Assembly: GCA_951406725.2 (NCBI GenBank)
Contig: OX597814.1
Coordinates: 35,402,001-35,466,000 of the forward strand
Reading direction: 5' to 3'
Source: Octopus vulgaris
Taxonomy: Eukaryota
Length of the DNA: 64,000 nt
Each line of letters begins with the position of its first letter. Position 1 is the stretch's first letter. Below, piece after piece: positions 1-64,000 of the stretch. Below the pieces are notes generated by a model, which saw only the letters and a list, made by a program, of their open reading frames with translations, did no database searches and was not told the DNA's origin. Both the position numbers and the translations under genes were made by a program.

Positions 1-1373
1 ATGCTATATTTTAATTGATGCAGGAAATTTGAAAGATAAAATTGATCATGGTTAGATTTTGACTTACAATGTAAAGGGTTGTAACTTAATACAGCAAAGT
101 ATTGTGTCCAATAGATAACAACAACTAATATAAATAAAAACAATTATATCTATATAGAGTAGAGTTTGTGAAATTAAGTAGATATTCCTATGAACCTGAA
201 CTTTACATTTAGAAATATTTAATTGGATGTAAAATTGTCCTTAAGATACTAAGGAAAATTTAAATAAGAAAGAAAACCTAATTGAAATGTATTTCTCCAC
301 CAGAGAATTCATCTTTCACACTAGCAAAGTTCTGAAGTTTTTCTAAGTTAAAATTAAATCAATAACTAATGCACAATAGTGATATCATATTGTATGTTGT
401 GTTATATATTAAATTTTAATTTTTATTTAAATTTTATTCTTAAACCTATAATACCTTTTGCTAATAATTCTAAAATCTTCTAATATTTTGTAGAGAAAAT
501 AGCAAAAATGAAACCTAGTATTTTATATTTGAACAATATTTTGGTTGCAAGCAATTATAACATCTAATAGGTGTTACAGAATTATTAATATTTCAATAAT
601 ACATGTGTATGTCTAAAAAAACATATTTTAAAAAATTAAACATTTTCTAGAAGACAAATGAATATTTTGTGCATAGTGATAATTTAGGCATCAAAGGATT
701 AATTTCAATATTGAATATGAATTATCTCTATCTTTGAAATTTGAAGGGGATAGAAGTGGAAAATAGCTCCAGAACATTGCAGCAAGCTATTAGAAATATG
801 AGAAAAGGTGGTAAAAGGATACAATGTCTGGAACTAAGAGTTCTATTTGCATTGTTGAGTGTTCTGTATTGAAAATTTATTCAAAGTTTCTTCATATAGA
901 GTATCTGAGAATTATCTCATATTAAGATAATAACACCTGATTTTATATACATGCTTTATATCTGAAACAGAAATTTAGTTGTGCAAGCTAGCAAAGCATT
1001 CAGAAAGTTTTCAGTAACTCAGCTCCCCTATGTACACCCCCATCTTTAAATATCATATTTAGTGACCTCTGCCAATTAAAATTTTTCAGAATGCTAGGCT
1101 AAGCGCAGGAGTGGCTGTGTAGTAAGTAGCTTGCTTACCAACCACATGGTTCCGGGTTCAGTCCCACTGCATGGCACCTTGGGTAAGTGTCTTCTACTAT
1201 AGCCTCGGGCCGACCAAAGCCTTATGAGTGGATTGGGTAAACGGAAACTGAAAGACGCCTGTTGTATATGTGTTTGCATATATATATATATAACAAAGTT
1301 GAGTTGTGGGGTATCGCACGAGTGGAATTATATATGAAAGAAGGTTTGAAAATGCAATTTAAAAGATGTTTAT

Positions 1374-1418
1374 TTACTTTACCGGTTTCACTCTTTGGAA
1401 AAAGTTTATCAAAAGTAA
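1374..1418 (-). ncRNA. Minimal type-I hammerhead ribozyme, U3-A8 core variant
   Basis: Minus strand reads TTACTT-TTGATAA-ACTTTT(TCCA)AAGAGT-GAAA-CCGG-TA-AAGTAA: 6-bp stem I, 6-bp stem II, palindromic stem III. Confidence 0.75.
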
Positions 1419-2269
1419 CATGTGGAAGTTTGGTTGCGTTAAGTATTGGTTGTTGCAAATTGCTACATTACATATATATATATATATATATATATATACA
1501 GTATTTGGAAACAGGGACATGTTAAGGACATAAAAATGTACAACAGTATGTTGAGAATATAAAGAGGTTTAACAAGCTCATTGAAAAAATGGGCAGAAAA
1601 GATTAAAACAAATATATTATACATCTCAGGATAATTTCCAGGAGGAATTATTAAAAAAGTTCAGTACAGAATATTATGAATTCAAAAAGATTTACATTAA
1701 TGTGGTGGCGAGGTTGTTACTGACCTGTCCGTTTTAGCAGAGATGTGGAATTGAAAAGGATGTACCCGATTTTTCTTTTTTTGGCTTTCCTTCAAGCATC
1801 AATGATTTTGGGGTTAGGATGAGGTGAATATGTGTGTCTCTGCGTGTATGTGTGTATGCATACATATACATGTGGTGTGAATAGATGTGTCTGTGTGTCT
1901 GTAGTATTTGGTCAGATGGTGTCTGTTTGTCAAACGTGTGTGTGGTTGTCATGGTGTTGTGTGTGTGTGTGTGTGTGCATGCGCACGCATGTATGTGTGT
2001 GGATGGCATTTGACATGGTGCTGCATGTGTATATATATGTGCCTGTATGGAGGTGAGATTGGTGTGAGTGTGTGTGTCCCTGTGTGCGTGCACATACACG
2101 CATACAAGTGTCTGTGTGTGGGGGCTGTTTTTGATTGGTTCCAGGGTGGTGTAAATAGATGTGTGTTGTTTAAAGAATTTTTTTGGGTAGGATGGTGTGT
2201 GTATATGCGTGCTCGCCCGTGCGCGCGCGTGTTCGTGCGTGTGCACGTCTACACATGTGTGCGGGCCAT

Positions 2270-60944: not shown

Positions 60945-63147
60945 TATGATATAAATCCTGTTCTGTCTGTCTGCTTGTGAGCTTATAACTCAAGTATTGT
61001 TCATTCAATTATACTGAAATTTTAAACATGGATACATGAGAGAGTGGGGTGTTCTGTAATCTAAAAAGATTTTCAAAATTGTCAGTTTCAAAGTGAGAAT
61101 CGCTATTTTTGTAATGTTTGCCTGTCCATCAGATGATTAAAACTTCCATTTTTATTTTTATTTGAAACCACTGTTATGTATCCTGTTGTTCTTAACACTA
61201 CATCAGTGAAAATCGAAATAAAATACTTAAAGCAACAGGTGTCAAATACAATAGCCAAGGTCTGTGCAGTACCATGGGCCAAAAAGTTTCCAATTTCTTT
61301 CCTAATGCAAGCCCAGAGCAATCTCTTATCTCTTACACTATATATATATATCATCATCATCATCATCGTTTAGCGTCATATATATATATATATATATATA
61401 TATATATATATTCCTTATGCATTCCAAAACCAAGCTAGAGATTTTGACGCATGGGGTATCAAAAGATTCAGTACTATTTCCGCTACAAATTAAACTTAAT
61501 TTCCATTTGCATATTTGCATTTCAAAAATTTAACATAATCTTTTCCCTAAATCAACTATCACAAACATTTTATGCGATGACATCACATTTTCTATATGTG
61601 TGTGTACCTTAAAAGACATCAATCATCACAACACACAACTTCACTCACTCACTCACTCACTCTATCTCTCTTTCTTTCTCTCTCACACACACATGCATAA
61701 ACACACATGTCCATTTCATATACGTACATACATCTTTCACTTTCTCATCTCCTTCGCTTTCTTTCTCTGTCCTTTTTGCTTTCTCTTCTTTCAATTTCTG
61801 CTCTCTTCAAATAATTTTTTTATGGAATGAGCAAGAGAGCCACAAAATGAGCCACCACAGCAGAATGGTGTGTCTGTATGTGTTGGCTGACATAACGAAC
61901 AGCTGGAGGTGAAACTCTCGACAAAAAGCAATGAGGTGGCAAATGTGTATAAAAATTATTATTTAATACATGTTCTTAATATATATATATATATATTAAG
62001 AAATTTATCTACAATAATTATTGTGGCATTTACCGTTAAATTAGCAGTTCATACATGTGCTTCTATTTGGTTAATTTATGCTTCATACAAAAATAAAAAC
62101 ATACTACATACATACAACTGCTTACAAGATTAGGCATTAATGTTCATAATTTTATATTTACAATATTGAAAAAATATGCTACCAAAGAAAAGACGTAATC
62201 TCTCCAGAAACAAGTATAAAGCAAGGAGGATTGTAGAAAACCGAAGGCAAGAGTCTGAAAAGAGAAGCTAGATGAAATTTTCTCAAGATCAGCAAATGTA
62301 TGTTGCAGCACTTAATACTGGACCATTAAATCAATGTTTCAATGATTAGACAGAGGTTCAATAGAATAGCTCTCAGAAACAGACTACATACAAATTCATT
62401 CTTCACAACTCCTGAAGCTATTTTCAGATATGATCCATCCCATTCTTATAAAAATGATAACTTTGTCCAAATTGGTGTGCAAAACACTAATTGTCATTTC
62501 TGTAGAGCTTTAAAATTTTCATATGAAACAAATGGTATGTGCTGCTCAGGCACACTACCAGCTCCTTCTCAACCTCTTATGGATCTCCTAGAAGGTACTT
62601 CCATCCAGTCAATGGATTTTCTGAACAATATCAGACAATACAACTCTGCATTTCAAATGATATCATTTGGTGCATCTAAGAAGATAGTTAAACATGAATT
62701 TATGCTGACATCAAAGTTCAAAGGCAAGTCTATCACCTCATTGGTTCTCTGTTACCCACAAATGAACGACCACAGTTTCTCTAAATTTACTTTGTGAGTG
62801 ATGTAGGACAGAAAGCCCGAAGGAGGTGTTAAAATTTCAGAGGAAGGGTCGTATTAGACACAGCGCCGACTGCTGCAAAAGAGTATATCCACTGACAGCT
62901 TTGCGGTGCATATGAAAATCACGTAATACCCCCTCCCCCCAATTTTCCTTAACAGGTTATGGCCTGAAATACTCCATATGGATGCATAGTATGTTGCTTA
63001 GTCAAATTAGCGCATCATTTACTCCACAAATGTTTTGTCGTCAAAGCTGCACTTTCCCATATCTACTACTTCAACATAATTGTAATATATTATATACAAA
63101 CTATGCCATCATTTTAATCCCAAGCAATGCTGGGTATCTCTGCTACT
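60945..63147 (+). mobile_element. Helitron deletion derivative (boundaries tentative)
   Basis: Rep-helicase N-terminal remnant; 5' (TA)n-TAAATCCTGTTCTGTCTGTCTG; 3' decayed hairpin CCCAAGCAATGCTGGG followed by ...CTGCTAC. Confidence 0.6.
62342..62800 (+). pseudogene. Helitron Rep-helicase N-terminal fragment
   Basis: CHFCRALKF..E..GMCCSG...LLEG....FLNNIRQYNSAFQMISFGA, then a frameshifted KVQRQVYHLIGSLLP. Confidence 0.88.
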
Positions 63148-63862
63148 ATATATATATATATATATATATGTATGTATGTACACATATGGAAAGGTAGAAA
63201 ATGCTAAAATAATTTTATAAAAAACATTTCAGTTATTGAGACTTTTTCAACTGTAAGTATGGAAAACAATTAAATTTTGGAAAAATTAAAAGAAAAGTTT
63301 TTTAAAAGAATGTTTGCATAGTATTCATTTGCAAGGGGTATTTTCCTTGTTTCTGCCTCTCTCTCTCTCTCTTGTTTACTCATGTGGTTTCGAGGTCTAT
63401 ATATATAATATAAAAATAAAAAAAGGTAACACAGCTGGTGTTTAACATTTATGACAGCTGTTTTTATAGAATATACATACACAATGGGTTTCTTTCAATT
63501 CCATGTAGCAAATCGACTTACATCGCTTTGGTTCACCCTAGGGCTATAGTAGATCACACTTGCCCAAGATTCCAAGTAGTAGGACTGAGGATGAAACCAG
63601 GTGTTTAGGAAACAAACCTCTCATCCACATAGCCATGCTTGTAATTTAATAATATATAATTCTTGTAGAACATAGTGATATTAGACATTATAAGTACCAG
63701 TTCAAAACAGTAAATAGAACTCCCCACTTCTGAAACATAAACAAGATATCTCGCATTTACTGGATGACCAAATTAAATATGATAATTTGTTTTTTTCTGT
63801 TTAAACACAATTAGATCTTACAGTTCTATATTTAAGAGATGAGGAATTATGTGCATTATTTA

Positions 63863-64000
63863 CATTATTTACATTCAACGGATATTTGTCCACATCTTGT
63901 TTGTTAACACGTTTCAGCAGATATACCCTCCAGCCTTTTTCAGGTGTTTTGGGGAAATTTCGAACCTGGGTTCTCATTCCTAAGGTATTTTTTGATGTTG
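63863..64000 (-). mobile_element. PLE 3' tail with decayed minimal HHR (63906-63948), cut by the window edge
   Basis: Third copy of 25613-25770. Confidence 0.8.

Follow-up and report, generated by a model that had tools for sequence, protein, structure and literature searches.

Type-I hammerhead motifs of nine families in a 64-kb stretch of Octopus vulgaris DNA and their probable origin in Penelope-like elements

A stretch of 64,000 nucleotides of Octopus vulgaris DNA (assembly GCA_951406725.2, contig OX597814.1, positions 35,402,001 to 35,466,000; the whole of it is referred to as the window) carries 13 motifs with the layout of type-I hammerhead ribozymes. They belong to nine unrelated families and represent 11 insertion events, as motifs 1374/4345 and 32573/32643 each are the two arms of one fold-back. 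We consider it very probable that these motifs are the hammerheads of pseudo-long terminal repeats (pseudo-LTRs), i.e. of the 3′ ends of Penelope-like elements (PLEs) from at least three lineages, accompanied by derivatives without an open reading frame (ORF). The copies in the window are most likely silent relics. The pairing of PLEs with hammerheads, the dimer logic and the variability of the motifs are already known and will not surprise the specialist.

Inventory and core state of the motifs

An earlier note on this DNA had listed 13 type-I hammerhead sites in about nine sequence contexts. The layout was found near the listed position in all 13 cases, whereas an intact core, defined as U4, G5, A6, A9, G12 to A15.1, U16.1 and H17 with a Watson–Crick 3–8 pair, is present in only six. 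The number of contexts was borne out by a comparison of 11 regions, in which cross-family matches were limited to two, of 22 and 32 nt. Nine motifs are encoded on the minus strand and four on the plus strand.

Two of the intact cores contain a U3–A8 pair. The hammerhead at 1374..1418 (minus strand) has a 6-bp stem I and a CCGG stem III, with a predicted cut after 1380, and that of its inverted copy at 4345..4389 (plus strand) differs from it by a single change in stem II and another in stem III. A C3–G8 pair characterizes the other four: 7372..7479 (plus strand), with an 85-nt hairpin as stem II, a CAGCUG stem III and a weak stem I (2 bp, a gap and 4 bp); 25660..25705 (minus strand), a minimal hammerhead with a 2-nt stem III; 49890..49945 (plus strand, site 49892), with a near-palindromic UUAG stem III and a mismatch in the first stem I position; and 53506..53605 (minus strand), with a 73-nt hairpin as stem II, a 4-bp stem I and an imperfect stem III palindrome.

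The remaining seven cores deviate. Two degenerate hammerheads are located on the minus strand, at 11887..11932 (A6>C and a C3/A8 mismatch, 8-bp stem I) and 22771..22833 (U3·G8 wobble, two extra nt before GAAA, CCAGUGG stem III). The hammerhead-like motif at 32570..32620 (minus strand, site 32573) combines a G3–C8 pair and A15.1>U with a 7-bp stem I, a G10.1–C11.1 stem II and an AUAU stem III; the second arm of the same fold-back, at 32639..32689 (plus strand, site 32643), shares G3–C8 and A15.1>U, while its stem I is broken and its stem II damaged. In the hammerhead at 54802..54898 (minus strand), the core is mutated (U4>C, G5>A) and the 70-nt stem II is branched, being made up of 8 bp and two hairpins. 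Finally, two minus-strand copies of the 25660 family carry G12>A and U16.1>C (45252..45297) or G8>A and a 6-nt deletion spanning the cleavage site (63906..63948). Four of the seven (22771, 32643, 45252 and 63906) were identified by homology or position and not by the scan described below.

A hammerhead-shaped fold is predicted within 0.2–6.0 kcal/mol of the minimum for 10 of the 13 motifs. The difference amounts to 8.4 kcal/mol for 22771 and 12.2 kcal/mol for 32643, and the fold of 63906 is broken by the deletion. The 7-nt palindrome that forms stem III of 22771 occurs once more at 22830–22836 (minus strand), immediately 5′ to stem I. In the minimum-energy fold this additional copy is base-paired with stem III, possibly reflecting an inhibitory pairing or a coincidence.

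Excess over chance

A scored scan that tolerated two mismatches in the core and a stem II no longer than 115 nt returned 19, 12, 9, 7 and 4 matches in the window at scores of at least 22, 25, 28, 30 and 33, respectively. The corresponding means over 84 dinucleotide shuffles were 9.5–12.8, 2.1–2.9, 0.43–0.54 (maximum 2), 0.11–0.18 and 0, and the reversed window gave 15, 8, 3, 0 and 0 matches. Below a score of about 25, real and control counts are similar and the scan reports noise. Eight of the 13 listed motifs score at least 28, and 54802 rounds to 28.0, just below the cut-off. The separation is more pronounced for intact cores at scores of at least 28, with six matches vs. a mean of 0.08 (maximum 1) in 60 local shuffles and one match in the reversed window. 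Likewise, two intact long-stem matches compare with a mean of 0.05 in 60 shuffles, and a simpler descriptor found three matches with a Watson–Crick core vs. 0.35–0.38 (maximum 2; 2 × 40 shuffles). The similar counts in shuffled sequence that, according to the earlier note, would speak against the motifs were thus limited to low scores.

These controls bear on the possibility that a relaxed descriptor matched the motifs by chance, in DNA that is rich in AT and in hairpins. Such an origin would agree with the lack of Rfam hammerhead matches (see below), with the equality of real and control counts at low scores and with the four listed motifs that the scan did not recover; taken individually, 11887 and the G3–C8/U15.1 pair could be due to chance or to a plain fold-back element. 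Conversely, none of the 60 shuffles reached six intact-core or two intact long-stem matches, none of the 84 reached a score of 33, which four real motifs attained, and the ORF linkage and insertion geometry reported below are independent of the score. Chance matching is refuted for the motif set as a whole, and we regard it as highly improbable overall: the set lies far above chance, single degenerate members do not.

The Rfam hammerhead models gave no match at the gathering score in the window, and two regions of ~500 nt remained without a match even at E values up to 10. As these models describe canonical forms with short stems, the miss lowers the case for Rfam membership and not that for hammerhead-like working. 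At E values up to 5, all of the 150 matches listed out of 249 are microsatellite-driven noise of the microRNA type. Several scan candidates were discarded, namely 7827 (score above 30, a microsatellite artefact), 44582, 61068 and 16203 (scores at chance level), 17614 (inside the end of a hAT element) and 24423 (inside an ORF remnant).

The expectation that a strict search would miss most of the motifs was confirmed. Our re-implementation of the descriptor for minimal hammerheads in the pseudo-LTRs of metazoan PLEs (Cervera and De la Pena 2014, PMC4209133) finds one of the 13, namely 25660. That descriptor restricts loop 2 to at most 10 nt, and stems II are short in the part of the published alignment that was compared, unlike the three families with a stem II of 70–85 nt in the window. 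As one motif in 13 is caught, hammerhead censuses in repeat-rich invertebrate genomes are likely to be low. The same study puts the number of motifs at ~9,000 for Xenopus tropicalis and 4,000 for coelacanth, with extreme variability within a genome; one strict-descriptor motif per 64 kb is of the same order as the Xenopus density, so that this window does not bear out the earlier suggestion of an unusually diverse genome. In other respects, the motifs of the window match the published ones closely. Shared features are the type-I layout, the short stem I, the extra nucleotide before stem II, the palindromic helix III, the U3–A8 variant and the presence of many heterogeneous families in one genome, as well as the predominance of solitary truncated copies and the occurrence of opposite-strand pairs, which are 100–700 bp apart in the published set.

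Linkage to Penelope-like reading frames

Five remnants of PLE ORFs, all on the minus strand, were mapped by tblastn and hidden Markov models (HMMs). PLE-like frames were spotted by eye and then confirmed in this way with retrieved relatives. The PLE proteins retrieved comprise P0001 (E 1.4e-26), together with 150 relatives, P0002 (E 1e-9) and P0153–P0156 (E down to 7e-62), and clade labels were assigned from motifs in these database relatives. P0001 displays RWK, DKT and CxCx5C, which are marks of the Hydra clade according to Craig et al. (2021, PMC8557442), while the GxKF, DKG and Cx2-5CxxC finger motifs of P0002 correspond to the Neptune/Nematis type of the same study. P0154 is without a finger and Penelope/Poseidon-like.

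The first remnant, 3530..3736, encodes the C-terminus of a GIY-YIG endonuclease of the Neptune/Nematis type (83% identical to P0002 over 69 amino acids). It is followed by a decayed Hydra-like ORF with the C-terminus of the reverse transcriptase (RT) and the endonuclease (13233..14117), by a decayed Neptune-like ORF with the RT end and GIY-YIG (14625..15633), to which no same-strand hammerhead was assigned, and by a second decayed Hydra-like ORF (23039..24825) that a dispersed repeat interrupts at ~23192–23588. The fifth, 25893..26435 (26435–25908 in the tblastn/HMM mapping), represents the end of a Penelope/Poseidon-like ORF, includes GIY-YIG and shares 58% identity with P0154.

Three of the nine families (1374/4345, 22771 and the 25660 family) have an RT/GIY-YIG ORF upstream on the same strand. 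Motif 25660 is located 228 nt downstream of the Penelope/Poseidon-like ORF end and motif 22771 lies 264 nt downstream of the Hydra-like one; the probability of both linkages arising by chance is ~0.007 (hand calculation for 13 motifs in 128 kb of strand). The pair 1374/4345 frames the Neptune-like ORF end, with the inverted copy beginning exactly at 3737. The earlier claim of Penelope-associated type-I hammerheads with a palindromic stem III is supported by these three families, each downstream of a different type of PLE ORF remnant. A fourth link is possible for 11887, and for the six families without a linked ORF we infer a PLE origin.

A further relic, absent from the earlier list and noticed by eye, is present at 14192..14230 (plus strand), between two of the ORF remnants. 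It retains a 7-bp stem I, U3–A8 and a CCGG stem III, carries G5>U and a collapsed stem II, and escaped the scan. A tRNA-like piece with A- and B-box-like motifs is found at 25790–25865 (minus strand), in the interval that separates the Penelope/Poseidon-like ORF end from the (AAT)n run in front of hammerhead 25660. It is single-copy in the window and received no ARAGORN or Rfam call; it could act as an internal promoter for RNA polymerase III.

Insertion geometry and (TA)n ends

The arrangement of the copies provides a second line of evidence for PLE-derived 3′ ends. A 5′-truncated Neptune-like copy extends over 1329..3736 (minus strand) and comprises the ORF end, a microsatellite-rich 3′ region of ~2.1 kb, the hammerhead and a tail of ~50 nt to (TA)n. 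An inverted, 5′-truncated partner (3737..4434, plus strand; 92% identical) abuts the ORF remnant at 3736/3737 and likewise ends in (TA)n. The 32573 family forms a fold-back of 277 bp (32492..32768), in which two head-to-head stubs of ~130 nt are 87% identical and both arms begin 8 nt upstream of the core. At 49433..50218 (plus strand), a PLE-style insertion consists of an inverted 3′ piece (49433–49531), a direct 3′ piece (49533–49714) and a 504-nt unit (49715–50218), again with a (TA)n end. This unit is devoid of an ORF, the longest open frame being 62 codons, and it is the one place where the earlier idea of non-autonomous derivatives is suggested by the data. The fold-back insertion at 53362..53912 has an inverted plus-strand arm (53772–53912, 92% identical) that begins downstream of the predicted cut, at a distance of 7 nt; the notion that such arms start at the cut site itself is unsupported by this single case. 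In addition, the hammerhead in a fold-back stub at 59132..59320 is reduced to its 3′ half (GAAA, CAGUUG and UC at ~59211–59222, plus strand), a relic that was not part of the earlier list either. Altogether, inverted-copy or partial-tandem geometry was identified in four of nine families (1374, 32573, 49892 and 53506) and in the 59132 stub.

Moreover, a (TA)3+ tract lies 35–292 nt downstream of the motif, nearer than any upstream tract, in eight of nine families (e.g. at 35 nt from 22771 and 52 nt from 54802), vs. a background of 33% within 300 nt. These features resemble those of endonuclease-containing PLEs of the Penelope/Poseidon, Neptune and Hydra clades, for which 5′ truncation, partial tandems, an adjacent inverted copy, hammerheads near the 3′ end and a (TA)n preference tied to the zinc-finger linker are described (PMC8557442). 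Unlike those elements, the window holds no complete copy. Poseidon of Anolis similarly carries a hammerhead in its pseudo-LTR and inserts into AT-rich targets (Frangieh et al. 2024, PMC11167929). Finally, 31 recently active Penelope-like families have been reported in Octopus vulgaris (PMC13282606); ribozymes are not mentioned in the available part of that report.

Self-BLAST and pair alignments of the window revealed no locus with two same-sense hammerhead copies, only inverted pairs or singles. This is expected, since the copies are truncated. As paired copies lie on opposite strands, a dimer in cis is impossible, and a read-through transcript would fold as a long hairpin instead.

Stem III and the proposed mechanism

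Duplexes of the self-complementary stem III are predicted to be stable for 1374 (−8.3 kcal/mol), 7372 (−11.1 kcal/mol) and 22771 (−10.8 kcal/mol). Stem III is near-palindromic, with one change, in 4345, 49892, 53506, 54802 and 11887, and the 25660 family belongs to the 2-nt type. Dimer cleavage has been published for PLE hammerheads; it proceeds at a low level in PMC4209133 and is also covered in PMC6765202. For the anole element, cleavage was observed only with protein, and reverse transcription starts ~90 nt downstream of the cut (PMC11167929).

In line with this work, we propose that the motifs mark 5′-truncated stubs, which would arise when reverse transcription is primed at a target that is AT-rich or consists of (TA)n; many of the stubs are accompanied by an inverted copy. 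In a tandem transcript of the parent element, two same-sense hammerheads would pair via their palindromic stem III segments. The dimer would cut after UH, weakly and probably aided by protein, trimming the precursor to unit-length RNA (PMC4209133, PMC6765202, PMC11167929). Reverse transcription would then begin a short way downstream of the motif, so that truncated copies would retain the hammerhead. The density and variety of the motifs would follow from the position of the hammerhead, 35–300 nt from the 3′ end and always kept, and from the coexistence of many families.

Several observations weigh against this assignment. The scan score was devised after the motifs were known and was tuned on them. 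Motif 11887 follows the Hydra-like ORF end at 13233 at a distance of 1.34 kb, a loose and unproven link, and tblastn and HMM searches of the window detected no PLE ORF near 7372, 32573, 49892, 53506 and 54802, i.e. five of the nine families. The stem III self-duplex is weak or unfavourable (+2.6 to −2.9 kcal/mol) in 25660, 32573, 49892, 53506 and 54802. Alignments of two and three copies from the window show decay and no compensatory change, with none of six predicted pairs kept in compensated form in one of them. The copies of the ninth family (25660/45252/63906), which was set apart post hoc, lack a (TA)n end, the distances being 1128, 5620 and 252 nt; such behaviour would fit a finger-less protein, as (TA)n targeting is tied to the linker in PMC8557442. 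Lastly, the anole PLE does not require hammerhead cleavage to insert in vitro, and RNA ends at the cut site were not detected (PMC11167929), which makes the role in trimming uncertain.

Long stem II domains and core variants

Three families carry an extended stem II. In 7372, the 85-nt domain folds as a long hairpin (−38.0 kcal/mol, z −5.85), and the 73-nt domain of 53506 does so as well (−21.5 kcal/mol, z ~ −4). The 70-nt domain of 54802 forms a three-way junction (−22.1 kcal/mol, z −2.47). All three close as stems directly onto the core, and the cores of 7372 and 53506 are perfect. In these predicted structures, loop II tolerates long folded inserts.

The abundance of the two latter elements was addressed with contigs of four sequencing runs aligned over 52530–55150. 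In run X1, the summed contig depth, which is not a copy number, reached ~8,000–22,000 over the 53506 motif and 14,000–32,000 over the 54802 element vs. ~50 in unique flanks. The 53362..53912 element is an abundant repeat in runs X1 and X9 and the 54802 element in all four runs. Run X16 left most of 53410–54025 without cover and provided no contig joining across, which we do not use as evidence for absence of the insertion. The contigs of run X15, guessed to be RNA although it may be DNA, cover both elements and are not used as evidence for expression. In all four runs, the first inner hairpin is retained in loose-end consensuses of the 54802 family (8–49 contigs, agreement 0.74–0.88). By eye, the second inner hairpin is perfect in a consensus of five contigs (agreement 0.73), with one change on both sides.

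Natural hammerheads with U3–A8, U15.1–A16.1 and U10.1–U11.1 variants are on record (PMC3088659). In contrast, neither a natural G3–C8 core nor a stem II of 70–85 nt was found for PLE hammerheads in the literature searched, as far as its text was available; Luense et al. may cover such variants. In Anolis Poseidon, G3–C8 is the engineered C3G/G8C exchange, a partial rescue (PMC11167929), whereas in the window the pair is genomic and accompanied by U15.1. The long stem II domains and the G3–C8/U15.1 motif are possible new variants. A more far-reaching interpretation, which we consider doubtful, is that several independent, abundant PLE-derived families possess a selected, folded stem II of 70–85 nt, with a long hairpin or three-way junction replacing loop contacts or docking the PLE protein. 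Together with the natural G3–C8/U15.1 core, they would represent active ribozyme variants that the published descriptor misses, and hammerhead counts in animals would be underestimated several-fold. In any event, three independent families with a long stem II, two of them abundant, offer natural test cases for the role of PLE hammerheads and their need for protein help.

The families without an ORF (7372, 49892, 53506, 54802 and 32573) could alternatively be self-standing non-LTR retrozymes, or similar to short interspersed elements, that spread via cleaved and circularised RNA and borrow a PLE enzyme, the long stem II being functional. Animal non-LTR retrozymes are indeed short ORF-less repeats with a type-I hammerhead and a proposed derivation from PLEs (PMC7229834; bioRxiv 10.64898/2026.07.22.740005). 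The ORF-less 504-nt tandem unit at 49715–50218 and the high contig depth over 53506 and 54802, with the caveat on copy number given above, would agree with this view, as would the argument in the preprint that animal retrozymes are non-autonomous PLE derivatives. However, retrozymes are defined by hammerhead-bearing tandem units of ~300 nt and by circular RNA, and the window contains no such tandem: no locus carries two tandem hammerheads, in contrast to the ~300-nt arrays of PMC7229834. Fold-back arrangements and (TA)n termini are characteristic of PLEs. We judge a retrozyme identity to be unlikely, and it overlaps with the assignment to PLE pseudo-LTRs in any case.

Pattern scans beyond the window

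The pattern of the 54802 family had no match in the genome contig collection, and those of the 25660 and 32573 families had none in the viral contig collection. One Streptomyces match to a window-family pattern was taken as chance, and one viral match was rejected because the stems are missing. A metagenome scan with a long-stem pattern returned 54 loci, none of them similar to the window motifs by BLAST. Forty-one belong to one family of another animal, L015 is an ordinary hammerhead locus of its own, and the other 12 were judged by eye to be chance matches.

The family of 41 loci (within L002–L055; e.g. L003 940–1044 and L043 1501–1606) is a repeat of ~320 nt that contains the 3′ half of the hammerhead twice, at a spacing of 66 nt. 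The long-stem pattern is satisfied because of this duplication and not by a true stem. The first CAGCTG palindrome, which lies outside the pattern, is intact in 27 of 41 loci by regular expression (five rows unparsed), and the first GAAA is present in four of 41; no PLE ORF was matched in the flanks. Pairing of the two palindromes in cis might yield the stem III of a self-dimer, or the first half could be a decayed duplicate. The three long-stem motifs of the window look different from this 3′-half duplication. Locus L015 (966–1118) comprises a pair of ordinary type-I hammerheads in opposite orientation, which reach 28.1 and 21.1 bits with Rfam model RF00163, both below the gathering score; an extra 5′ core half is found upstream of one of them.

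The metagenome family illustrates how the hammerheads might be passengers, long-dead or parasitic and without a role in mobility, with long stems II as one-off hairpin insertions or duplications. Damaged cores in seven of 13 motifs point in the same direction, as do the dispensable cleavage of the anole PLE in vitro (PMC11167929) and the success of Naiads without canonical hammerheads (PMC8557442). On the other hand, the three domains of the window are predicted to fold as true stems on the core (z −5.85, ~ −4 and −2.47), two of the cores are perfect, and the 54802-family consensuses keep both inner hairpins, including the both-sided change noted by eye in five contigs. On balance, passenger status appears rather unlikely to us.

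Other features of the window

The G+C content of the window is 35%, and microsatellites and dispersed repeats are dense, in a landscape that resembles that of cephalopods. Pfam searches of 16 + 148 + 127 stop-free frames and three read-through frames identified neither a PLE domain nor a host gene, and ARAGORN called no tRNA. Two direct repeat pairs were noted, at 34569–34854/36369–36656 (94% identical, ~290 nt) and 50833–51178/52116–52464 (92% identical, ~350 nt), with no hammerhead match or ORF domain between the copies of either pair. The Pfam matches are confined to hAT, Tc1 and an RVT_1 fragment. They correspond to a hAT transposase whose frame is broken by a single stop (18363–20525, minus strand), a frameshifted RT of the long interspersed element type (46357–47311, plus strand) and a Tc1-type transposase fragment (48329–48760, plus strand).

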